Positions 6,136 to 59,818 of a stretch of 64,000 bases of DNA are shown here, piece by piece. The stretch spans positions 11,136-75,135 of the forward strand of contig CAYRCK010000010.1 in NCBI GenBank assembly GCA_964422745.1, in the 5' to 3' direction. How positions within the stretch are numbered: the first letter of the stretch is position 1; every line of letters begins with the position of its first letter. The notes under the pieces are model-generated. The model did not search any database and had not been told where the DNA came from. It saw nothing but the letters and a program-made list of their open reading frames with translations. The translations under genes and the position numbers were made by a program. This stretch comes from an uncultured bacterium. GTDB lineage: Bacteria > Krumholzibacteriota > Krumholzibacteriia > Krumholzibacteriales > Krumholzibacteriaceae.

Positions 6136-9100
6136 TCAGCGCATGAGTATCATCTTCCTGGTCCCGGTGAAATCCCCGGCCCTCATCCTGTAGAAGTAGA
6201 TGCCGCTCGCAACATCCGAGCCGCTGTTGTTCTCACCCCTCCACGTCACCCTGTGAGGGCCCGCCTCCCTTACACCGTTTACCAGAGTCTTCACGAGCCT
6301 TCCCGTTACGTCGTACACCTTGAGCGTAACGTGCCCTCTCTCCTTCATCCCGAATCGGATCGTCGTCGCCGGGTTGAAGGGATTGGGGTAGTTCTGCGCG
6401 AGCCCGTACCTGTATACCGGAGGCGTCTCCTCATCGCCCGTGACCACGCTGTTCGTATCGCCGTCCATCCATCCGAGCACATCCTTCGCCACGATGTTTC
6501 GCATGATGGGTGAAGAGAGCTCGGCATCCTTCATCAGCATCAGGCTGAATCCGAACCACATCGTCCTTATCTCATACCCCCCGTCATTTATGCCCGTCGA
6601 GTATATGCCGGCGTAGTACGGAAGGGCCTCGTGGTCGGGGTAGGCGAGCGCATAATCACCACTGCCCGTTTTCTCCAGGCAGTCCAGATCCTCTACATAC
6701 GGACAGCCGCTTAAAACATAGAACGAATCCCCCCATGTCGTGTGCCATAGCGGGTTGTATACATCCTCGCATGCCTCAACGAGCGGGTTCATGACTCCGC
6801 CGGTGTACCGCCCGCCTGTCATATCGAAGTAGCTGCCGTGGACATAGCAAACTCCACACATAGTAGACGTCAGCTGCGTGGGACAGGCAGCCAAAGAGGC
6901 GTCGAGATCTCGTGCTATGTTGTCCCCGCAGACCCAAAGGCCCACATCATGCGGTGAGAAATCCATCCAAGCCACCAACGCCAGACAGTCGTTACCCTTG
7001 TCGCTGTGCGTGGTACCATCGCATATTGTGCAGACATCGAGGTCGCCGCTATCCCATATGATCGTGGAGTAGGCCGTTGTCAAATGATAGCACTTCGCCC
7101 TGCCACCGAGCCCGTTAGATACACAGGAGGACGCACCGTTCACGTCGTAGCGGTCCGGCTGAACGCTCAGAACGGCCTCCAGGGTCGGCGTCCAGTAGTC
7201 CTCGACAACGCCCCCGATGGAACCGCGGCCGCTGAAATCGTCCACGAAGAGCACATCGCTTGTGAAGGTAGGAAGGCATGTGAACTCGAACCACTCGTCG
7301 GGCCCCTGCGATAGCAAGTATCCCGCACCCGGACCTGATCCTCCCCTCGGCAGAGTCGTGACGTTGCCGTCCCTGTCCTGGGCCGAGAAGTAGTACTCGA
7401 TGATGTGCCCCCTCGTGAGCAGCGAGTCGTTTAGATCAACCATGTACTTTCCGGGTACCACACCCGAGGTACCTGCTCTGGCCGTATCGCACTGGATTAT
7501 GGCCTCACACGCCACCTCGTCGCATGCGACTATGTGGCCGTAGTCGCCCTCTAGATCCCAGCAGTTTATCGGTGTGGGGGCGGGCTCTGCCCCTATGTAG
7601 GTGCACTTTACGTGCATGTACACCAACGGGCCGAATGCGTCCTCGGCAATGCCCCTGCCCATGGGGGATTCACACGAGACGACTATCGAATCACCCGGAT
7701 CGATTATAGGATCACTCGAAGGCCGTATATCTCGCGCCATATCGGCGCGGACATAGCTGTCGAGTCCGAATTCCTCTTCGGGGAAGTTGTCCTGGAAGAG
7801 ATCTAAATCGCGATAGGTCCACAGCGGGCCCGTAGCCTCGTACCTTACTATCTCAACGTTGTCGAACCACGGGGACGGGGTGTGGGCCGCACAGTAACCG
7901 TACACACCGTACCACGTAGGACACATATCGATCACACCGAGTGCGACCTGGATCGAGTCAATGCCCCCCCCGCCCCAGTAGGGGCTTATATCCTGCTCGA
8001 AGAAGAGGTACTCCTTGAAATCGCCGTAATACACAAAATTGTTGTCTCTCCAGTGACACGGACAGCCGTCGTCTATGTCCCTGACCTTCCAATAGTAAAA
8101 CACGAGGTTTATCACCGGCAGATCACGGTACACGCTGAACCTGAGAAAGCTCCCGCCCAGGTCCTCAAAGGCGGAGGGCGCTATCATGAGATCCTGGATC
8201 TCGTCTCTGCCCGAAGAGTACATAGTCATGTCGATCGGGGGAGAGACAACCATCTCCTCCTGCCCGAAGCAGCCAATATCGGCGCCGTCCTTGCAGTACG
8301 GCGTTTCGTAGAGGCCCTCGTACTCGGTGCTGGCGTGGGGAGATCCCGCGAAGAACACGATCTGACGGGAGAGGTTGTCGTTGCATGGATCAGTCTCCTG
8401 GTACAGATTTTCCCAGATATCCGAGTACATCCCGTACGGCTCGGGGACGTCCGCGCGCCAGTATAACGTGTTGAGATCGCCGTCGGCCTCGAGAGCGCCA
8501 ACTGAAGCGCTCTCGAAGTCCTCGTAGTCGATCGTCCCCGTCTCATCCGAGATCCATATGCTGTCGACGATGCATGCGCCGTCAGTATTATACAACCCAT
8601 CCTCGTCGTTCCACGTGGAGGGTGATGTGAACCTGACCCTGAACTTCGTCCTGTACTGGGGCAGCGCCAGGACGTGGTTACCAATGATATCGTCCGTGCC
8701 GTCATATACGGCTATATTACGCCAGTCCAGGCCACCGGCATCGTACTCAACGTGAACCTCATCCCAATCCTCTTCCGTGTCTATCCGCATCTTGTACACT
8801 AGGTTCAACAATCCGTTGAAATAAAATGGATCGCTGACCAGCCATTGGTCCCAATAGCTCCCGTAGCCCGGAGGCGTAGACCAACCGCATGTAATTTCAT
8901 CCTCCGGCCTGGCACCGCACCAAGCCGACTGGGTACCCTCCAGGGGATAGAGGCGTCCGAAATCACCCCCGCCGAGGCCCGCGAAGTCATCTACGTGGAA
9001 GAAGGTATCTAATTGAGCGGTATTATCGACACGGGTCCACCCCTGCCAGTCGTTATACTCGAAATCGAAGCGCACGATGACGTACGTATCTACAGAAGCC

Positions 9101-10281
9101 GACCTGTAAAGGCCGCCGGGCCCACGCTCCAGAATCGCGCTGAACTCGCCCCTCGACCAATCCTTCCTTATTACAGGCCTATCCCTGCCCTTCCTCCCAC
9201 CGGCATCTGATGACGATGTCATCAGGAGGGTGAGGCATACGAGAATCAGCGAAATCAACAGCGCACCGCCCGCTTGCTTCGAGCGCCTCCTAATGAACAC
9301 CGCCGCAACAAGGAGCATGGCGATTGCGAGCAGCAGTATCACCGGCGTGCTCAATAGCGGCACGAAGCTGGGCTCTATGACCTCTATGATCTGAACGCAG
9401 GTGTCGTAGACGGATCCCACGCCGTCGTCCCACGCTATTATCACAAGCGTATCGCGATCGTTGTGAGAGGCGCCGCTCGCGTCCATTACCCCGTACACCG
9501 TCTCGCACTCCGCCCCCTCCAATCCATAGACCGTGCCCGACTGGGGAAATCCTCCCCCAACCTGGCCCATACTAGTGATAACGAACGAGTAGTCCCTCGC
9601 TGGTGAAACCGCAGTGGGATTGCAGATCTCGAAGGGTATATACGCGGCCGGCTGCCCCTCGTCCACGTACGTCAGCGAATCCTGGTGGATCTCGAGCTCG
9701 GGTGGAGGCTCGACCACGTGCAGGATCAAGGTGTCACTCGAATAGTACGGGTTGCCCCCGTACCAGTTGGGATCCTCGCAGTCACCGCAGTCGGGCCTGC
9801 AGGTTACTTCTGCATCGCAGTACGTCACGACGACCACGAGCGTGTCATATGAGCCGACCTCCGCGCTCAGCAGTGCGGTCACATTGATATCCTGCCACCA
9901 GAGATACCCCGGATCGATCAGGTAACAGTCATCCAGATACGGATCGCCCGTAACGGTATAATCGCCGGCGTCCGAATCCGCCATGTAGGCGTGTACACAG
10001 AACGTGTCTGTGTCCGGACACGGCCAAGAGACGAATCCGAAGTTACACGGTCCGACCGTCCAGCTGAGGGCCTGTCCCACAGGGATATCGTGATAATCCT
10101 CACCGAAATCCACGTACAGCCCGGGATCCCCCTCCTTGCTGCAGCCTGCCTGCGCGAGTACCGGAACCGAGAACAACGTAAGGACCAGAACTGAAAAAAC
10201 AAGAAAGGTAAGCGGAAGTACGATCGAGCACCGTTTCATGACAACCCCCGGGGATCGAGAATGAGCAGCCGACCTATTCAT
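6136..10281 (-). CDS. 1381-aa exported multidomain protein with internal sorting/TM segments and a C-terminal FlgD-Ig/T9SS-type tail
   Basis: Signal peptide after MKRC (alternative start 10239). Internal VPLLSTPVILLLAIAMLLVAAVFIRRR plus a second hydrophobic stretch. C-terminus QNYPNPFNPATTI…SGIYFYRM…KMILMR. Confidence 0.85.
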   Translation of the reverse strand: MNRSAAHSRSPGVVMKRCSIVLPLTFLVFSVLVLTLFSVPVLAQAGCSKEGDPGLYVDFGEDYHDIPVGQALSWTVGPCNFGFVSWPCPDTDTFCVHAYMADSDAGDYTVTGDPYLDDCYLIDPGYLWWQDINVTALLSAEVGSYDTLVVVVTYCDAEVTCRPDCGDCEDPNWYGGNPYYSSDTLILHVVEPPPELEIHQDSLTYVDEGQPAAYIPFEICNPTAVSPARDYSFVITSMGQVGGGFPQSGTVYGLEGAECETVYGVMDASGASHNDRDTLVIIAWDDGVGSVYDTCVQIIEVIEPSFVPLLSTPVILLLAIAMLLVAAVFIRRRSKQAGGALLISLILVCLTLLMTSSSDAGGRKGRDRPVIRKDWSRGEFSAILERGPGGLYRSASVDTYVIVRFDFEYNDWQGWTRVDNTAQLDTFFHVDDFAGLGGGDFGRLYPLEGTQSAWCGARPEDEITCGWSTPPGYGSYWDQWLVSDPFYFNGLLNLVYKMRIDTEEDWDEVHVEYDAGGLDWRNIAVYDGTDDIIGNHVLALPQYRTKFRVRFTSPSTWNDEDGLYNTDGACIVDSIWISDETGTIDYEDFESASVGALEADGDLNTLYWRADVPEPYGMYSDIWENLYQETDPCNDNLSRQIVFFAGSPHASTEYEGLYETPYCKDGADIGCFGQEEMVVSPPIDMTMYSSGRDEIQDLMIAPSAFEDLGGSFLRFSVYRDLPVINLVFYYWKVRDIDDGCPCHWRDNNFVYYGDFKEYLFFEQDISPYWGGGGIDSIQVALGVIDMCPTWYGVYGYCAAHTPSPWFDNVEIVRYEATGPLWTYRDLDLFQDNFPEEEFGLDSYVRADMARDIRPSSDPIIDPGDSIVVSCESPMGRGIAEDAFGPLVYMHVKCTYIGAEPAPTPINCWDLEGDYGHIVACDEVACEAIIQCDTARAGTSGVVPGKYMVDLNDSLLTRGHIIEYYFSAQDRDGNVTTLPRGGSGPGAGYLLSQGPDEWFEFTCLPTFTSDVLFVDDFSGRGSIGGVVEDYWTPTLEAVLSVQPDRYDVNGASSCVSNGLGGRAKCYHLTTAYSTIIWDSGDLDVCTICDGTTHSDKGNDCLALVAWMDFSPHDVGLWVCGDNIARDLDASLAACPTQLTSTMCGVCYVHGSYFDMTGGRYTGGVMNPLVEACEDVYNPLWHTTWGDSFYVLSGCPYVEDLDCLEKTGSGDYALAYPDHEALPYYAGIYSTGINDGGYEIRTMWFGFSLMLMKDAELSSPIMRNIVAKDVLGWMDGDTNSVVTGDEETPPVYRYGLAQNYPNPFNPATTIRFGMKERGHVTLKVYDVTGRLVKTLVNGVREAGPHRVTWRGENNSGSDVASGIYFYRMRAGDFTGTRKMILMR

Positions 10282-10315: not shown

Positions 10316-10344
10316 ATTATAGCAGGCAATTACAATAATGTCAA
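10316..10344 (-). promoter_or_regulatory. Consensus sigma70 promoter for the 1381-aa gene
   Basis: Minus strand TTGACA-17 nt-TATAAT, with TG-N extended -10. Confidence 0.85.
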
Positions 10345-34996: not shown

Positions 34997-36976
34997 GTGC
35001 TTATGCGCAGGTATAGTATCAGTATCTCATTACTGCTCATAATCCCGCAGCTGGCATTCGCCGGCATCCCGATACTCTACCCAAACTGGCTCATTGACGG
35101 AGCCCCTGTGACTACAGAAACCGGTACGCAGTGGTTCCCGAGGCTCGTGGCCGATGGCGAGGGCGGAGCCATCATAGCCTGGATGGACAAACGCTCGAAA
35201 GACTACTACGACATCTACGCCCAGAGGATCGACACCGATGGATACATCCTCTGGACAACGGACGGCATCCCAGTCTGCACCGCCGGCGGGGACCAGCGCG
35301 AGCACTGGATCGCCACGGACGGTTCGGGCGGGGCGATCGTTACATGGGCCGATTACCGCAGCGGATCCGACTCGGATATCTACGCCCAGAGGATCGATCC
35401 GAACGGCAACACGATGTGGACCGGCGACGGCGTAGCCGTGTGCTCCGCCGAAGGGGACCAGACCTCACCGCAGATCGTCGAGGACGGCTCGGGCGCAACG
35501 GTGATAACGTGGGTCGACGCGAGAAGCGGCGCGGGTGAAGAGGACATATACGCAATGAAGATCGACCCGGATGGAAATGCGCTCTGGACCTGGCAGGGGG
35601 TCGCCGTCACGGCGGCTTCGCACGATCAATATGCACCGCAGATCACTTCAGACGGCGCCGGAGGCGCCATCATTGCATGGGAGGACAAAAGAGCGGGGGG
35701 AAATCCCGACATCTACGCCCAGAGGATCGACAGCGGGGGAAATGCGCTTTGGACGGCTGACGGCGTGATGGTGAGCCTCTCGGACAGCGCGGACTGCAAT
35801 CTGCGCATGGCGTACGATGAAGACGGCGGAGCTATCTTAACGTGGGATAACAACGGCGGGGGATCCTTCGATATCTTCGCCCAGCGGCTGGATGCCTCTG
35901 GGAATCCCCTTTGGGCTCCCGGAGGTCTGGGCGTTTGCACGGCGCCCTCTCCCCAGATCAAACCGGAGATCGTATCGGATATGGCATCCGGAGCCATCAT
36001 AGCGTGGACCGATCTGCGCAACGTCCTGGGATCGGATATCTACGCCCAGAGAGTCGACGCCGGGGGCGGCATAATGTGGTCCGCCGACGGCGTACTGGTC
36101 TGCGGAGCGGAGAGCAATCAGAGTTATCATAAAATCGCAACGGACGGGCTGGGCGGAGCGGTCATCACCTGGCGTGACGAGCGCGTCGATAACAACAACG
36201 CCGACATATACGCCCAGCGGGTCGATCACGACGGTGGAATTCAATGGACCGAAGGCGGTGTCCGCATTTGCGCCGCAGACGGTCTCCAGACAAAGCCGCA
36301 GCTCGTATATGAGGGCTACTGCGGAGTCATAATCGCCTGGGCCGATTTTCGCAACCTGTACGACTCGGACATATACGCCATGAAGGTATGCGAGGGATTG
36401 CCCCCTGTGGCTACCCTCCTCCAGAGCTCGTCGTGTTCGATCGATGGAGCCGATGTGGTCATAGAATGGACGCTGACCGAAACCGGACCCGACGTTGATT
36501 TCCACGTCTACCGGGCGCCTGCTTATTCAGCCACGTTCGTGGAAATATTCGATCCGCAAATAATAAGGAGCAACCTCAATTTCTCGTTCAGGGACAGGGG
36601 AACGGAACCGGGGCGCTCATACCGGTATGCGGTAGAGATGGAGGACGAATCGGGAAGAAGCACACTGTTCATGACGGATGACGTAACCGTTCCCGCTGCG
36701 TTTCTATCATTGGAGCAGAACCACCCTAATCCATTCAATCCGGTTACGACTATAGGCTATTACGTTCCGCGTGAATGCCGGATCGAGCTCGGCGTTTACG
36801 ATGTTTCCGGCACGCTCGTCAAGCGTGTCACAAGCGGAAGTGTCCCGGCGGGTCATCATAAAGCGACGTGGAGCGGCATCGACGAATCGGGGAGGCCGGC
36901 CGCTTCCGGTGTATACTTCTACCGTCTCAGAGCAGGCAAGGAAGTGATAACCCGCAAGATGACGCTTCTCAGGTGA
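34997..36976 (+). CDS. Secreted 8-repeat beta-propeller-like protein with FlgD-Ig/T9SS-type tail
   Basis: Eight ~55-aa repeats W..DG..V…Q..P.I..DG.GGAII.W.D.R…DIYAQRID; C-terminus QNHPNPFNPVTTI…SGVYFYRL…KMTLLR. Confidence 0.85.
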   Translation: MLMRRYSISISLLLIIPQLAFAGIPILYPNWLIDGAPVTTETGTQWFPRLVADGEGGAIIAWMDKRSKDYYDIYAQRIDTDGYILWTTDGIPVCTAGGDQREHWIATDGSGGAIVTWADYRSGSDSDIYAQRIDPNGNTMWTGDGVAVCSAEGDQTSPQIVEDGSGATVITWVDARSGAGEEDIYAMKIDPDGNALWTWQGVAVTAASHDQYAPQITSDGAGGAIIAWEDKRAGGNPDIYAQRIDSGGNALWTADGVMVSLSDSADCNLRMAYDEDGGAILTWDNNGGGSFDIFAQRLDASGNPLWAPGGLGVCTAPSPQIKPEIVSDMASGAIIAWTDLRNVLGSDIYAQRVDAGGGIMWSADGVLVCGAESNQSYHKIATDGLGGAVITWRDERVDNNNADIYAQRVDHDGGIQWTEGGVRICAADGLQTKPQLVYEGYCGVIIAWADFRNLYDSDIYAMKVCEGLPPVATLLQSSSCSIDGADVVIEWTLTETGPDVDFHVYRAPAYSATFVEIFDPQIIRSNLNFSFRDRGTEPGRSYRYAVEMEDESGRSTLFMTDDVTVPAAFLSLEQNHPNPFNPVTTIGYYVPRECRIELGVYDVSGTLVKRVTSGSVPAGHHKATWSGIDESGRPAASGVYFYRLRAGKEVITRKMTLLR

Positions 36977-51270: not shown

Positions 51271-53853
51271 ATGTTACGCAAGGCCGCATGTCCTGTAGCG
51301 CTCATATGCCTGGCCGCCCTGCTGACCGTGGCGTCGGATGCCTGCGCCGGCAATGCCCACAATCATAGATTCCAGGATGTTCTAGACTGCCGATTCCGCA
51401 TCGATTCAGCGCTCGACCTGGGCTACTCAAGACTCGCCGGGGCCGTATCGACGGCCGCGGCGGGGGACACGAACGCATTAAAAACCAGCGTCGCCGAATA
51501 CTTCATCACACACAAACGGCGGTGCAAGATAAAGCAATGGCCGCCCCATGAAAACTCAAAACTCAGGGCGGACGCTTTCCTCGAGGATGAATACATACTA
51601 GGCATACACCCAGGATACCGCCTGAAGAGATCCCTGACATGGAGGGAAAATCCGGCGAAGTCCGATAACTGGATGTTCATGCTGAATGCATTCGACATAC
51701 TGAGAAGCGTCACCGATACCTACAGGGCAAGCGGTGACACGAGATACTCCGAAAAGGCCAAGAACCTGATACTCGACTTTATCGAGGATAATTACGACTT
51801 CAGGCGCCTCCCCGGCAGGTATTCATGGTACGACCACGCGGTGGCCTACAGGGCCATATATCTGGTTGATTTCTATATACATTGCATTTATATGCATGAC
51901 TGTGACGCCGGTTTCATGCTCGAGCTCCTCGAGCTCGTATGGCGTCACGCCGTCTATCTTTCAAAGAGCAGATACTATTCGAGCAAGACAAACCACGGCA
52001 TGTTCAGCAACATCGCCCTACTTAGGATCTCGCTCGCCTTTCCGGAGTTTCGCGACTCTGAAAGTTGGAGGGATACGGCCGTATCCCGCATGGAGCGCCA
52101 GGTGCAGGACAACTTCACAGAATGCGGCGTGCACAAGGAGTACTCCCCCGGTTATCATGTTCTAACCACGAAACTCATCGAACGGTTCGTGGAGGACTGC
52201 CGGGTGGACAGGCGTATCGAACTCTCGAGTGATCTCAAGGACAGAATGAAATCGATAAAAACGAACATACCGTACTTCTTCCTTCCCGACGGGATGTACT
52301 CCCTGATCGGGGACACACAGCTTTTACCTGCGGAAGAGGCGCTTAGACCGCTTGCGGCGCATAATCCGTACATTCGATACGTGCAGACGAGTGGGAAAAG
52401 GGGGCGGCCCCCTCGAGGCAGATCGAAGGCCATGCGCGACGCCCAGATCTTCGTCATGAGAAGCGGGTGGGGAGAGGAGCGGCCGTACGAAGAGGAGTCC
52501 TGCCTGATAGCCGATTTAACCGCATACGGAAACGCCCACCAGCACAAGGATTTCATGTCTTTCGAGCTGTACGCGAAAGGCTATAGATGGATCACCGATC
52601 TCGGGCCCTTCTCATACAACTTCAGTGATCCCAGAAGAATATACATAAAATCGAGCATCGCCCATAATGTCGTCGTGCCTTACAGGGAAGAAACAAAACA
52701 TCTTGTCAGGAAGTCGAGGTTGGAATACGAAAGCCCCTCTCCTACCACCAGGCCCCGGCGGCTGGACCCCCTAGAAGTCAAGCTGAACCAGATCGCGATG
52801 ATTGGAAACACAGAGGATAGGATTTCACTGCTCGAGGGATTGCTCTCGGATTATGTCGGTGATTTCGAGGACAGGATACTCATCATGCTGGCATTCAGCT
52901 ACCTGGAAACCGACACCGATTCCAAGGCGGCTGAAGACTGCCTGATGAGGGTGATAGACAAGGGCTCTCAAAACGAGTACTACGATGTCGCCTCGGAGTT
53001 GCTTTCCCTGAAAGACGAAATACCCGACCTCAACGATCTCGAAAAGAAGGGAAGCGATGACGACCACCACAGGGAACCGGTCCAGGCCGGCACCCGTGGC
53101 GTTGAAATAAAGAGCAGGGGGAAAAACGCCACCCTGCCCGGTGATCCAAGCTCGCGCGAAAATCTTTCGAATAAATCCGGGCTTCATGCAATAGAGGCAG
53201 ATCAAAGAAACAGGCCCGTAGTGGACCACTGGCTTTCGGAGAGTAATTACGATTACCTCGAAGGGCATTTCAATTACACCTGGTTTTTCAAGCATTCACG
53301 ATCGATTCTCTTCGTCAGGCCTCATTATTTTCTGGTGGTTGACAGGCTCGACACCGAAGATCCGTGCACCTTCAGGCAGCTTTTTCACATGCCGCCCGAC
53401 GTGGAGGTGCTAGAGCGCAGTGGCGGGTACACTCTCTCTGTCGGGGATTCGCTGAAATGCCTCTTTCTGCGAATAGCCGGGCCCGGAGAACTACGTGGAA
53501 GGATCGTGAGGGGACATAGAGACCCGGAACTCCAGGGCTGGTACTCGGGAAAGTTCGGCAACTTCGAGGCTGCCCCGGTAGTCGAATACTCGTTCGAGGC
53601 CGAAGAGGGCAGCTACTTTCTGGCCCATCTCTTCGTTCCGGCGGGGAAGGAGGACATATCGGGATTCGAGGTGGAAATCCGTAACGGAGAGAGTTGGGAT
53701 CCCGGAGAGCTCGAGCCTCTTCACCTCGTGATAACCGAACCGCACCACCGCACAAGTATCAAGCTCATGCCGTCTTCGATCTTCGTTCCCTCTCCGAAAG
53801 GCCCGATGGCGGACGAAGATCCGCACATCAAGGTAGCCCGCAGGCGGAAATGA
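51271..53853 (+). CDS. Heparinase II/III-like polysaccharide lyase with internal insertion
   Basis: Signal peptide; NHG, G.HKEYSPGYH, FVMRSGW, HQHKD..SFEL…DLG..Y, AHN, H.RSILF…FLVVD, QLFH. Confidence 0.82.
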   Translation: MLRKAACPVALICLAALLTVASDACAGNAHNHRFQDVLDCRFRIDSALDLGYSRLAGAVSTAAAGDTNALKTSVAEYFITHKRRCKIKQWPPHENSKLRADAFLEDEYILGIHPGYRLKRSLTWRENPAKSDNWMFMLNAFDILRSVTDTYRASGDTRYSEKAKNLILDFIEDNYDFRRLPGRYSWYDHAVAYRAIYLVDFYIHCIYMHDCDAGFMLELLELVWRHAVYLSKSRYYSSKTNHGMFSNIALLRISLAFPEFRDSESWRDTAVSRMERQVQDNFTECGVHKEYSPGYHVLTTKLIERFVEDCRVDRRIELSSDLKDRMKSIKTNIPYFFLPDGMYSLIGDTQLLPAEEALRPLAAHNPYIRYVQTSGKRGRPPRGRSKAMRDAQIFVMRSGWGEERPYEEESCLIADLTAYGNAHQHKDFMSFELYAKGYRWITDLGPFSYNFSDPRRIYIKSSIAHNVVVPYREETKHLVRKSRLEYESPSPTTRPRRLDPLEVKLNQIAMIGNTEDRISLLEGLLSDYVGDFEDRILIMLAFSYLETDTDSKAAEDCLMRVIDKGSQNEYYDVASELLSLKDEIPDLNDLEKKGSDDDHHREPVQAGTRGVEIKSRGKNATLPGDPSSRENLSNKSGLHAIEADQRNRPVVDHWLSESNYDYLEGHFNYTWFFKHSRSILFVRPHYFLVVDRLDTEDPCTFRQLFHMPPDVEVLERSGGYTLSVGDSLKCLFLRIAGPGELRGRIVRGHRDPELQGWYSGKFGNFEAAPVVEYSFEAEEGSYFLAHLFVPAGKEDISGFEVEIRNGESWDPGELEPLHLVITEPHHRTSIKLMPSSIFVPSPKGPMADEDPHIKVARRRK

Positions 53854-53931: not shown

Positions 53932-53982
53932 ATGAACGAACGGTCAAATGACACGCACTGGCTTGATCCGAAAGGAGATGTA

Positions 53983-55194
53983 ATGCCCGCCCATCGCTGT
54001 ATCAAATGGTGCTTGCTGATTTCCCTGTTCATCATGGTCTTCCCACCCACTAAGGCAGCAGCCGGAGAAAAATCCCGCGCGGGTATGCTCGCAACTGGGA
54101 ATGCGGCCTTCGCGCTCGATCTCTACTCCACATTCGTGGATATGGAAGGCAATATCGTCATGTCGCCCTACAGCATATCGGCGGCGCTCGCCATGACATA
54201 TGCCGGAGCCAGAGGCAATACCGCGGCCCAGATGGAGCGAACGCTGCACTTTCCCTTGCAGGGCGGCGAGCTGCACGCCGGATTCGCGGCGCTCGAAAAA
54301 AGGCTGCGAGAGATACAGGAAGAGGGCTGCGTGACCCTTCATTCGGCCAATTCACTATGGCCTCAGCAGGGATATCCGTTCCTTGAAGAATTCCTCTCAT
54401 CGACGAGGGATCACTACGGCAGCACGGTCACACCGGTCGATTTCCTGAGAGCGCCCGATCTGGCGGCGGAGGTGATCAACGCCTGGATCGAAGAGAGGAC
54501 CGCCGGCAGGATCCCGGATCTCATCCGCAGCGGGGACATCGATCCGGTCACGGTGCTCGTCCTTGTAAACGCCATATATTTCAAAGGGAACTGGCAACAT
54601 CCCTTCGGCGGAAAAAACACCCACGATGCAGAATTCAAAACGCCGGACGGCGCGATGAAGGATGTCAGAATGATGTGCGCCAGGGGGGACTTCAGACTGG
54701 GCGAGTATGAAAGCGCTCAGGTGCTGGAGCTCCCGTATGAATCCGGAGACCTGTCATTCTGCGTTATCCTGCCCCGTGAGGAAAGATCCCTGAGCGAGAT
54801 AGAGCAGACCCTGACGACCGAGCTGCTCGGTTCGTGGATTCGCGGCACATCCAAAAAAGAGCTCCTCGTATATCTGCCGAGATTCACCGCCGAATGGGGT
54901 ACCGTAGATATCTCGAGCAACCTGATATCGCTCGGCATGACCGACGCGTTCAAGAGATTGGTGGCCGACTTCTCCGGCATGGACGGCAGCAGGAATCTGT
55001 TCATCGGGGTGGTGTTCCACAAGGCATTCATCGAGGTCAACGAGGAGGGAACCGAGGCCGCGGCGGCGACCGCCGTTCTGATGAAGAGAGGCGGTCCAGT
55101 ATTTCGCGCCAACCGTCCCTTCCTGTTCCTTATAAGGGAACGAGCAACCGGCAGCATACTGTTCATGGGTAGAATCGTAGATCCGTCTGCATAA
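53983..55194 (+). CDS. Secreted serpin (serine protease inhibitor)
   Basis: SPYSI..ALAMTY.GA.G.T, LVNAIYFKG.W..PF, ELPY, PRF, EV.EEGTEAAAAT, A.RPFLF.I, ILFMGR; AGGAG RBS before ATG 53983. Confidence 0.95.
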   Translation: MPAHRCIKWCLLISLFIMVFPPTKAAAGEKSRAGMLATGNAAFALDLYSTFVDMEGNIVMSPYSISAALAMTYAGARGNTAAQMERTLHFPLQGGELHAGFAALEKRLREIQEEGCVTLHSANSLWPQQGYPFLEEFLSSTRDHYGSTVTPVDFLRAPDLAAEVINAWIEERTAGRIPDLIRSGDIDPVTVLVLVNAIYFKGNWQHPFGGKNTHDAEFKTPDGAMKDVRMMCARGDFRLGEYESAQVLELPYESGDLSFCVILPREERSLSEIEQTLTTELLGSWIRGTSKKELLVYLPRFTAEWGTVDISSNLISLGMTDAFKRLVADFSGMDGSRNLFIGVVFHKAFIEVNEEGTEAAAATAVLMKRGGPVFRANRPFLFLIRERATGSILFMGRIVDPSA

Positions 55195-57580: not shown

Positions 57581-59818
57581 ATGCGTTGTGCCAGATATGT
57601 ACTCGGTGCCCTTGCGGCACTGCTTGTATCGTTGCTGCCGTACGGACCGGCCGATGCAGCCAATGACATTCCATCGGCCCACCAGCAGGGACAGAAGTTT
57701 ATTAACCGCGTCTTGGTCACAGACGGCACCAACGTCCATAACGTAGGGCGGCTCCATGTCCATGTGGGTAATTGGGGAGTCTTCGGCTCTTATCCCGGCA
57801 CCTCGTATCCCTTCTCCAGCGTACCCTCGGCTCAATGGCCGGCCAGCAGCGGGGTGGAATACCTGTATGCCTGCGGATTGTGGGTGGGAGCGGAAAAAAA
57901 CGGAATCCAATCCGTTTCGACTTCCATGTACGAGTGGGAACTGCTTCCGACGATGAGCGTCACAGACATCATATACAACTCGTACGAGGGGGCCCTCGGT
58001 GGCACCAGGCTTCCGGATCCAGGGTCGGACGATGACGGCGACGGATGCACGGATGAGGATTGGCTGGATGGACGCGACAACGACGGCGACGGATGCATAG
58101 ACGAGGACTACGCGGCCATATCCGCTCAGATGTTCAGCTGCTGGTATACCGATGACCAACCCGATGCTACAGCCTACTATCCAGAGCACAAACCCCTGAA
58201 CATCACGGTCAGGCAGGAAAGCTATCAATGGGAAGAGAAGTCATTTTACGATTTCGTCGGCATCAGGTACATAGTAACGAATACGGGTAATGATTTACTG
58301 GAGAACGTCTATCTCGGATTCTTCGTCGATCCCGACGTCGGCCCTCGGAGCAGACCGTATTACTGGCAGGACGATGCTGTGGCAAGCTGGCGCGGCCTCA
58401 TGTGCACGGAGAACGGGCCGGTCTCACTGGATATGGGATACGCGTACGACGTGGACGCAGACGGGGGGCAGACGCCGGGGTACGCCGGATTCATGCTTCT
58501 CGGTCATACAACGGATCCCCTCGGTATCAAGGCCCCCGAAAGGGCGGGGATTGCCTCCCTGCAGTACTTCGAGGGAGAACTGCCTTACGAGTACGGTGGA
58601 GACCCTACATCCGACTACCAGCGGTACGAGCTCATGTCGTCGGGCCGTTTCGACAGGGATTCAGGCTCCCCGGGAGATCACAGGATGCTGATCAGCACAG
58701 GGCCTTTCCCCAGGCTCGCCCCCGGCGAGACGATAGAAATACACCTAGCGATAGTTCTCGGGATGGGGCGGCAGGGCATGCTCGAAAACGCCGCCGCCGC
58801 GCAGGATCTCTTCAACGGCGTTTGGTGCGATATAGATGGAGATCCTCTGACGGGAATCGACCGGAGGGAAACTCCGGTGCACGGCCCCGCCCAGGTAGTG
58901 ATCGACGCCTGCCGCCCCGAATTGAGCGATCCGGTAACTGTCCCCCGGGGATCCGTCGTCTGGATCAACAGCGACTGCGGGCAGGAGGATGACTATAGGG
59001 ACAGCTGCGGCTACGGAGAGCAGGACAGCCTGTTGTTCCGTACCGGTGTCGCGGGCAGAGAGCACCGGATCAACTGGCTCTCCGAGGGTCAGTCCATTTC
59101 CCTGGACATCCTCGACATCCTCCCCTGTGTTTGCCCCAACCCGTTCCCGATGAGCCTGTTCAACACGAATGACAGGCTGGATCCATCCGCGTGGGACATT
59201 CTCCCCGTGGCCGTGCTGGGCAATCCGTCCTTGGACGTTCGAGAGATAGACATATCCACCGTCCTGCTCGAAGGTGTCGCTCCCACCGTTCATCACAGCA
59301 TCAGGGACAAGGCGGGGCTCACCGAGGGCAGGCAGGACTGCGAGTGCACTACAGCCGGGCCCGACGGGCTGGATGACCTGATGCTGAAATTTCCGACTGT
59401 GGACCTCGTGGAGGTCTTGAGCATGGACGGCATCCCCACGCGCGGGGAGGAGAGGATGCTGACGCTGACGGGGCTGCTGCTGGACGGAACCGCTTTCCGT
59501 GCTTCCGACTGCCTGAGATTCGTCGGCGAGATGGATCTCCCCGAGCATACGCATCTGGAGCCACGTATCACCGCTGCATATCCCAACCCGTTCAACCCTG
59601 TCACCCGCCTCTCGTACTACATACCCGATGGCCGGCACGTGCGCCTATCGGTGTACGACGTGTCGGGAAGGCTGATCGAGGTGCTGGTCGACGGGTACAA
59701 GACCGCCGGGGATCATACAGTGAGCTGGAACGCGGAAGGATTGGGGAGCGGAGTTTACTTCCAGCTTCTGGAGTCAGGCGATTATTCGGTATCCGGAAAG
59801 TTGATTTTGCTGAGATAG
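57581..59818 (+). CDS. Secreted multidomain protein with T9SS/FlgD-type tail
   Basis: Signal peptide; HNVG..NWG.FG..WP..SG.EYL..GLWVG; DDDGDG/DNDGDG Ca-type motifs; AYPNPFNP…SGVYF…KLILLR. Confidence 0.8.
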   Translation: MRCARYVLGALAALLVSLLPYGPADAANDIPSAHQQGQKFINRVLVTDGTNVHNVGRLHVHVGNWGVFGSYPGTSYPFSSVPSAQWPASSGVEYLYACGLWVGAEKNGIQSVSTSMYEWELLPTMSVTDIIYNSYEGALGGTRLPDPGSDDDGDGCTDEDWLDGRDNDGDGCIDEDYAAISAQMFSCWYTDDQPDATAYYPEHKPLNITVRQESYQWEEKSFYDFVGIRYIVTNTGNDLLENVYLGFFVDPDVGPRSRPYYWQDDAVASWRGLMCTENGPVSLDMGYAYDVDADGGQTPGYAGFMLLGHTTDPLGIKAPERAGIASLQYFEGELPYEYGGDPTSDYQRYELMSSGRFDRDSGSPGDHRMLISTGPFPRLAPGETIEIHLAIVLGMGRQGMLENAAAAQDLFNGVWCDIDGDPLTGIDRRETPVHGPAQVVIDACRPELSDPVTVPRGSVVWINSDCGQEDDYRDSCGYGEQDSLLFRTGVAGREHRINWLSEGQSISLDILDILPCVCPNPFPMSLFNTNDRLDPSAWDILPVAVLGNPSLDVREIDISTVLLEGVAPTVHHSIRDKAGLTEGRQDCECTTAGPDGLDDLMLKFPTVDLVEVLSMDGIPTRGEERMLTLTGLLLDGTAFRASDCLRFVGEMDLPEHTHLEPRITAAYPNPFNPVTRLSYYIPDGRHVRLSVYDVSGRLIEVLVDGYKTAGDHTVSWNAEGLGSGVYFQLLESGDYSVSGKLILLR

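Follow-up and report, generated by a model that had tools for sequence, protein, structure and literature searches.

C-terminal sorting signals are defined by their terminal position, and exosortase H (XrtH) is the enzyme paired with the IPTL-CTERM signal. Internal signal sequences are known from other precursors. The cytochrome b-c1 precursor FbcH of Bradyrhizobium has an internal signal sequence and is processed by signal peptidase, and the polyproteins of flaviviruses and bunyaviruses are cut by the host signal peptidase after internal signal sequences. For bunyaviruses, this cutting of the polyprotein by the host enzyme is mentioned in PMC6784171. The exosortase and archaeosortase systems that we used for comparison were PEP-CTERM/XrtA, IPTL-CTERM/XrtH, VPXXXP-CTERM/ArtB, and PGF-CTERM/ArtA (bioRxiv 10.1101/2023.06.07.544157). 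Here we describe a single open reading frame (ORF) in a 64,000-nucleotide (nt) stretch of DNA (the window) from an uncultured bacterium of the Krumholzibacteriota. With a probability of roughly 0.55, we read this ORF as an old, conserved fusion encoding a secretory precursor, in which a helical-hairpin linker joins two exported modules and which would be cut twice and doubly sorted. Its parts are of known kinds, namely an exosortase-type signal, a Sec signal peptide, and a type IX secretion system (T9SS) C-terminal domain (CTD). What is new is the back-to-back arrangement of these parts in one conserved ORF.

The ORF lies at 6136..10281 on the minus strand, as do all of its parts below, and encodes 1381 amino acids (aa) plus the stop codon. 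It begins with a predicted Sec-type signal peptide (aa 1-45, 10147..10281), which has an h-region at aa ~17-40 and AQA before G46. This signal peptide aligns with those of standalone proteins that are homologous to the N-terminal half (the N-family). An in-frame ATG at aa 15 (MKRCSIV..., nt 10239) is as plausible a start as the first ATG. The N-module (aa 46-305, 9367..10146), which is supported by homologues, composition, and an AlphaFold2 model, is followed by a mid-protein sorting signal (aa 306-333, 9283..9366), in which FVPLLSTP abuts the first transmembrane (TM) helix, TM1 (VILLLAIAMLLVAAVFI), and RRR comes next. A loop that is predicted to be cytoplasmic, SKQAGG (aa 334-339, 9265..9282), leads into an internal signal-peptide-like segment, TM2 (aa 340-360, 9202..9264), with the h-region ALLISLILVCLTLLM and the c-region TSSSDA. 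RRR and SKQAGG are predicted to serve also as the n-region of this second signal peptide, and a signal peptidase I site is predicted, by inspection, between A360 and G361. The remainder consists of the 936-aa C-module (aa 361-1296, 6394..9201), a large multi-domain protein that is predicted to be secreted, and a T9SS type A C-terminal sorting domain (aa 1297-1381, 6139..6393; NYPNPFNP...ILMR). A Kyte-Doolittle scan of the ORF gave exactly three hydrophobic segments, at aa 17-46, 304-332, and 336-358.

A sequence-only reading of this stretch had described a stop-free ORF with the peptide VPLLSTPVILLLAIAMLLVAAVFIRRR-SKQAGG-ALLISLILVCLTLLMTSSSDA at nt 9363-9202, a Cys-rich acidic N-domain, and an FlgD/T9SS-type tail of the form PNPFNP…LMR. 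The ORF is stop-free as described, and the peptide occupies aa 307-360 at those positions. The N-domain (aa 46-305) is indeed Cys-rich and acidic, with 12 Cys, 44 Asp+Glu vs 4 Lys+Arg, and an isoelectric point of 4.05. The tail (aa 1298-1378/1381) passed the curated cut-offs of TIGR04183 (32.8 bits vs 23), PF18962 (28.8 vs 27), and PF13860 FlgD_ig (40.6 vs 27). It also scored 137 bits on a hidden Markov model (HMM) of the family CTD, and it matched FlgD and PorU CTDs among the PDB sequences. No Pfam or NCBIfam domain was found in the fused ORF besides the CTD, and outside the CTD neither module had a sequence match in the PDB.

A homology search with aa 40-335 returned 69 clusters, nearly all of them proteins of ~311 aa. 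A typical N-family protein starts with a signal peptide, continues with the same Cys-rich module, and ends in a tail whose consensus is VPVPLFTAPVVTILVLAMILAAAVFMRRRAASRA. The 129 standalone tails stop 5-9 aa past the basic cluster. Among genomes (one per species) there were 45 N-family loci, all in Krumholzibacteriota-type metagenome-assembled genomes (MAGs) and often several per genome, and every complete copy terminates shortly past the basic cluster. Another 30 loci came from a metagenome scan, all ending 45-47 aa after a conserved DTCVQ. Since the standalone tails all end just after the basic cluster, the N-half is, by this layout, from a family that carries a genuine tripartite C-terminal sorting signal. 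In size and layout the standalone N-family proteins resemble the Methylomirabilis S-layer protein mela_00855, which has ~312 aa, an N-terminal signal peptide, and a C-terminal IPTL-CTERM domain (PMC8671808); the comparison concerns size and layout and implies no likeness in sequence. The AlphaFold2 model of the N-module is all-beta, with two beta-sandwich domains and then a TM helix (predicted local distance difference test, pLDDT, 81), and a fold search with it gave only generic tandem Ig-like matches, at low TM-scores.

With the whole protein as query, the search yielded ~95 proteins of 1017-1056 aa, which align only to the C-terminal ~75% of the query and, where names are given, come from Krumholzibacteria or Krumholzibacteriota. 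These standalone C-family proteins (~1030 aa) have their own Met and a classical-looking signal peptide (for example, MKK...GDTYA before REKK, or ...TSVSA before RDP), and they end in a T9SS domain. The model of the C-module (pLDDT 79) contains several beta-sandwich or jelly-roll domains and one alpha/beta domain; in a fold search it gave only partial matches of the jelly-roll, carbohydrate-binding, or glycoside hydrolase family 2 accessory kind (TM-score <= 0.17). Thus far the C-half is like known T9SS type A cargo (Por_Secre_tail/FlgD_ig), with a CTD of ~85 aa and standalone homologues arranged in the standard way, as signal peptide, passenger, and CTD. Unlike in such cargo, the Sec signal in the window is internal and stands after an exported module and a stop-transfer helix.

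Both halves are usually encoded by separate genes, and they are also fused in four distant relatives. The five fused proteins, out of >200 family members, are the window ORF, P0001 (1789 aa, L001 2276-7645), P0002 (1242 aa), L053:607-4809 (MAG GCA_016926065.1, contig JAFGPI010000063.1; the true ORF has 1400 aa including the N-module and the hairpin), and P0083 (784 aa, cut by the contig end). Their pairwise identity is 42-52%. At the junctions, FVPLLSTP, RRRSKQAGG after TM1, and a site between SDA and GG after TM2 in the window correspond to FVPLMGTP, RRRAA, and ASS/RE in P0001; YVPVFSAP, KKRSKISTN, and SEA/KE in P0002; YVPVVSTP, HRRSSKNLKTG, and VKA/TG in L053; and HVPLLSPF, KRRCGGMPVRP, and LHA/NK in P0083. 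All five keep the motif, TM1, the basic cluster, TM2, and a small-x-small site, with VP, one Ala in TM1, and one Arg invariant and a loop of 2-11 aa between the two TM segments. The four fused proteins of full length make up exactly one clade (bootstrap 33/100) in a neighbour-joining (NJ) tree built on 97 C-modules. In the NJ tree of N-modules, the window ORF, P0001, and L053 fall in a clade of five together with P0083, which is fused, and the standalone P0175 (bootstrap 22/100). Across 45 genome and 56 metagenome loci, no N-family gene had a C-family gene within 6 kb. We conclude that the fusion is rare, probably arose once, and has been kept in frame over a long time.

The alternative offered by the sequence-only reading, a recent fusion through loss of a stop codon, does not agree with these data. 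Since the fusion is old (42-52% identity) and the two families are not neighbours elsewhere, a recent loss of the stop codon between adjacent genes was rejected. A hidden stop codon was also considered. In four public DNA runs, contigs that carry the segment 8900-9700 show 0 mismatches and 0 gaps to it, and thus there is no hidden stop codon across the junction; with five independent fused sequences in addition, a sequencing error was ruled out.

The mid-protein signal was compared with the standalone tails by means of an HMM built from 91 unique tails, with a background of 449 sequences that included ~100 signal peptides and all six-frame ORFs of the window. Window aa 307-335 scored 38.4 bits and the best background sequence 2.3 bits, so the layout is more than chance. 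The window signal has the tripartite design (FVPLLSTP, a 17-aa helix, and RRR) and is the best preserved of the five fused signals, the others scoring 24.8 (P0002), 24.7 (L053), 11.3 (P0083), and 9.7 bits (P0001). Standalone tails score 36.7-75.1 bits (median 67.8), values that are inflated since the same tails trained the model. All 129 standalone tails are terminal, while 1048 residues lie beyond the basic cluster in the window ORF.

The downstream half of the hairpin looks like a signal peptide. By inspection, TM2 has the n-region RRRSK, the h-region ALLISLILVCLTLLM, and S-D-A at -3 to -1. In all five fused proteins the n-region of TM2 is basic and supplied by the sorting signal, the h-region has ~15 residues, positions -3 and -1 hold small residues, and beyond the site comes a charged stretch. 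Standalone C-family signal peptides show the same pattern at homologous positions, and in the fused ORF the basic cluster of the N-family runs directly into the h-region of the C-family signal peptide. The likeness of the h-region and S-D-A to a signal peptidase I site, as had been pointed out, is therefore a pattern common to the five fused proteins and the standalone C-family N-termini.

As for the kind of sorting signal, IPTL-CTERM (TIGR04174) matched nothing at E <= 10 in the tails of the window ORF, of the four other fused proteins, or of the standalone family. PEP-CTERM (TIGR02595) gave 8.5 bits (E = 4, cut-off 16) over the TM part only. Membership in IPTL-CTERM, PEP-CTERM, or VPXXXP was dropped, as no HMM matched, and the signal is, by its sequence, an uncurated flavour. 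The helix had been called IPTL-CTERM-like. That description holds for the tripartite signal and for the exosortase-family neighbour of the standalone homologues, whose best model is exosortase H, and it fails on the curated IPTL-CTERM and PEP-CTERM HMMs.

The neighbour was found at 28 loci, where the N-family gene is followed after ~35-120 nt by a gene for a ~190-aa polytopic protein and then by one for a conserved 155-aa membrane protein. The ~190-aa protein matches the exosortase/archaeosortase signature TIGR04178 with 62.2 bits (cut-off 23), and its best subfamily models are exosortase H (TIGR04177), with 80.2 bits vs a cut-off of 86, and archaeosortase B, with 70.6 bits vs 150. Across 26 unique sequences of this protein, ECT, N..R, and H do not vary. 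Cys, Arg, and His are the proposed catalytic triad of the exosortase family (bioRxiv 10.1101/2023.06.07.544157). By these features the protein is a member of the exosortase/archaeosortase superfamily, with its subfamily not settled. Since exosortase H is the partner of IPTL-CTERM, the earlier guess of an IPTL-CTERM-like signal had pointed at the right enzyme family. The gene pattern, with many substrates, one enzyme, and one substrate gene adjoining it, is the pattern by which such systems were defined. A fused gene (L053) and a substrate-exosortase cassette (L037) occur together in one MAG, GCA_016926065.1.

The N-family is like the known exosortase and archaeosortase systems in its tripartite signal, its many substrate paralogues per genome, and a substrate gene that adjoins a small polytopic enzyme with Cys, Arg, and His. 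It differs from them in that the motif VPLFTxP (VPLLSTP in the window) lies outside all curated signal HMMs, in that the neighbouring enzyme is just below the XrtH cut-off (80.2 vs 86), and in that the signal in the window is internal, with ~1050 residues beyond it. Among curated families, NF033207 ("midcut-by-XrtH protein") is the closest in concept, since by its name an exosortase-H-type signal is proposed in mid-protein, as in the window. The N-terminal 364 aa of the ORF matched it with 18.8 bits and a 90-aa linker with 22.7 bits (model positions 34-86 of 175, cut-off 45), and this weak match covers both hydrophobic segments of the linker. None of the four other fused junctions matched NF033207, so that the match in the window is probably due to TM composition. 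Membership was rejected on this sub-threshold score, which was not reproduced in the orthologues, and the likeness is conceptual only. Unlike NF033207, a small family with a 175-position model, the window ORF has a 1000-aa T9SS cargo with its own predicted signal peptidase site after the signal. We found no publication on the NF033207 "midcut" family, and a literature search on XrtH and on bacterial internal signal peptides gave nothing specific. A second curated model, NF058595 ("lipo-invert putative C-terminal anchoring domain"), matched window aa 313-355 (nt ~9217-9345) with 10.7-16.4 bits and the P0001 junction with 13.1 bits (cut-off 37). This is probably also a matter of TM composition, though the model is another that describes a hairpin-like anchor.

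In the processing that we propose, the N-terminal signal peptide would start Sec export of the N-module, and TM1 would act as a stop-transfer segment, so that RRR-SKQAGG would be left in the cytoplasm. TM2 would then re-initiate translocation, now of the C-module. Signal peptidase I would cut after SDA360 and free the C-module in the periplasm, from where it would cross the outer membrane via the T9SS and its C-terminal domain. The N-module, held by TM1, would be cut at or near VPLLSTP by an exosortase-family enzyme and moved to a surface anchor like its standalone paralogues. Each message would yield two proteins, at the surface or secreted, at a constant 1:1 ratio. It is plausible that the hairpin precursor is functional, since the hairpin elements are kept in five relatives at 42-52% identity. 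More tentatively, and at slightly less than even odds, we propose that this is a natural bacterial "secretory polyprotein", in which an exosortase-type signal and a signal peptidase I signal peptide stand back to back and send two products at 1:1 to two machineries, an XrtH-like exosortase and the T9SS, and that the arrangement has been selected across deep divergence within the Krumholzibacteriota. It would be like the polyproteins processed by signal peptidase in having a TM or stop-transfer element and then an internal signal whose cleavage separates two proteins. It would differ from them by the added exosortase-type signal and T9SS domain, and there is no homology. A corollary of the secretory-polyprotein reading would be an uncurated sorting system in this phylum, made up of a VPLFTxP-type tail, an XrtH-like exosortase, and a 155-aa membrane partner.

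Several observations weigh against processing of this kind. The fused signals are clearly homologous to the standalone tails but more diverged than any of them, which suggests relaxed or altered constraint on recognition by an exosortase. No curated sorting-signal model matches the tails. A tblastn search of the 64-kb window found no exosortase homologue, none was found near the fused genes in L001 or L053, and a search of the four DNA runs for the organism's own copy, made with a related cassette (L040), gave only spurious 35-nt matches. The bootstrap values for a single origin (33/100 and 22/100, from simple NJ trees) are weak. The two cuts are read from sequence, and acceptance by an exosortase of a signal that precedes a second TM segment remains hypothetical.

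Some of these points would be expected if only the signal peptidase I cut works. The mid-protein signal would then no longer be an exosortase substrate, and the N-module would be held by TM1, with the remnant of TM2, on the periplasmic side of the inner membrane; alternatively, it would serve the C-module as a disposable leader or chaperone. In their scores the fused tails lie at the lower end of the standalone range or beneath it, P0083 lacks the second Pro of the motif (HVPLLSPF), and the exosortase is missing from the window and from the surroundings of the fused genes in L001 and L053. However, all five fused proteins share VP and the basic cluster without variation and have the motif directly next to the TM helix, the score of the window signal (38.4 bits) overlaps the standalone range, and the MAG of L053 retains an exosortase cassette (L037). 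We regard this reading as unlikely. If neither cut took place, the product would be a hairpin membrane protein whose two modules remain fixed to the inner membrane on its periplasmic side, while CTD and sorting motif would be evolutionary relics. Such a topology fits the positive-inside rule. It leaves without a role a CTD that is well conserved and scores above the curated cut-offs, and a small-x-small site with a charged stretch that occurs in all five fused proteins as in standalone signal peptides; moreover, the h-region of TM2, with only ~15 residues, is typical of signal peptides. We consider an uncleaved protein very unlikely.

The C-module might instead come mainly from a second translation start, with read-through from the N-module tolerated and not selected. 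An in-frame GTG (Val328, 9298..9300, minus strand) stands just before RRR in the window, and starting there (MFIRRRSKQAGG-ALLIS...SSDA) would give a complete classical signal peptide (MFIRRRSKQ...SSDA) and possibly a separate translation product, the GTG being the relic of a start codon. P0001 has a Met directly before RRR, and P0083 has one in the loop. But in L053 and P0002 the corresponding position is not a Met, and no promoter-like site was found on the minus strand between 9300 and 10281. For lack of a stop codon, all ribosomes translating the N-module have to run on into the C-module, and the loss of the stop codon has persisted across 42-52% divergence. This makes an internal start a clearly improbable source of most of the C-module. 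An artefact, whether a sequencing or assembly error that hides a stop codon or a chimeric contig made from two genes, could be suspected from the rarity of the fusion (5 of >200 family members) and from one fused relative that lies on a contig with ~4x coverage. Four public runs that are identical across the junction, five different sequences from different samples with the same in-frame junction, and the grouping of the fused proteins in trees make it extremely improbable.

If the secretory precursor with two cuts is the correct reading, exosortase-family enzymes would be able to act on internal sites, exosortase and T9SS export would be stoichiometrically coupled, and bacteria, like some viruses, would make envelope proteins by way of polyproteins that host peptidases process. 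A single ORF with three predicted cuts would also offer a simple genetic handle on the specificity of exosortases, which is still poorly characterised. Furthermore, the finding draws attention, within a phylum that is uncultured, to an uncurated substrate/exosortase system and to a surface protein that is probably very abundant. If no processing takes place, it would be no more than an unusual fusion of domains.

The ORF is preceded by a sigma-70-type promoter-like site on the minus strand (10316..10344), TTGACA-17-TATAAT with TG before the -10 element, and the first ATG lies 35 nt downstream of the end of the -10 hexamer. The perfect consensus promoter that had been reported here is thus present, with a 12/12 match at 10344-10316. 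In a search with the strict pattern, the consensus promoter was not shared by the upstream regions of the relatives. L068 has a near-consensus TTGACC-17-(TG)TATCAT upstream of a standalone N-family gene.

The N-family genes that adjoin an exosortase gene are often found on contigs of 1.3-1.5 kb from different samples (L006, L058, L060, L065, L069-L071, L079, L085, L086, L096, L098, and L103). Most of these (not L006, L058, and L060) begin at variants of CCCAGG(CCCAGG)nAGATCGCACAGGGTCAG, ~250-310 nt upstream of the ATG, and the short contigs have variable ends just inside the exosortase gene. In L068 (3092-3170), this shared contig start lies ~20 nt downstream of the TTGACC-17-(TG)TATCAT site. 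The short contigs look like assembled abundant mRNAs with a 5' untranslated region of ~300 nt. As such, they would point to a very highly expressed surface protein, with the exosortase-adjacent copy of the N-family perhaps S-layer-like. An S-layer role is only a guess, prompted by these signs of very high expression. The 155-aa multi-TM protein (L002:2611-3078, with homologues in 17 further loci) always follows the XrtH-like exosortase and matches no Pfam or NCBIfam model; from its position it may be a partner of the sorting system.

A few N-family members have other passenger domains ahead of the Cys-rich module. In P0001 (aa 1-470, L001:2276-3690), P0158, P0162, P0175, P0189, and P0155, the Cys-rich module and the tail form a C-terminal anchor module, and the passengers of these larger proteins include repeats, DUF4347, an NlpC/P60-like domain (PF05708), and an Ig-like domain (PF18998). 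P0001 would therefore be a three-part precursor. In another subgroup (L004:7405-8388, L010, L011, L087, L097, and L105), PVPVPLFT before the TM helix is replaced by Cys-Cys tails such as ..DCCLAPLTPQ.., ..NCCIPFLTPQ.., and ..PCCIPVLTAP.., which may represent a second flavour of the signal or a lipidation-type processing. The MAG DATKWS01, labelled "Patescibacteria group bacterium", contains at least six N-family loci and the exosortase cassette (L009, L011, L022, L040, L041, and L043). Since these are otherwise typical of Krumholzibacteriota, its label or bin is probably wrong. For the fused gene of L053, the deposited call (P0035, 973 aa) takes as its start an internal Met that lies ~70 aa inside the C-module, and thus hides the fusion.

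On the C-family side, one Krumholzibacteriota contig (L007:1-11099) carries four tandem paralogues of ~1030 aa, each with a signal peptide and a CTD. The machinery of the T9SS (SprA/Sov, PorU, PorV, and GldKLMN) was not seen among the window ORFs that were scanned. Two more ORFs in the window, at 34997-36976 (+) and 57581-59818 (+), end in a T9SS-type CTD, which scores 100 and 80 bits with the HMM of the family CTD and matches FlgD_ig and Por_Secre_tail of Pfam; they have no other recognised domains, and they suggest that a T9SS is in use. The other neighbours in the window, which include PFK, two acyl-CoA synthetases, a methyltransferase, and TPR and MBL-fold proteins, showed no functional link to the fused ORF. 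The window also encodes a full-length bacterial serpin (53932-55194 (+), PF00079, 381 bits), whose gene adjoins that of a heparinase II/III-like protein (51271-53853 (+)).

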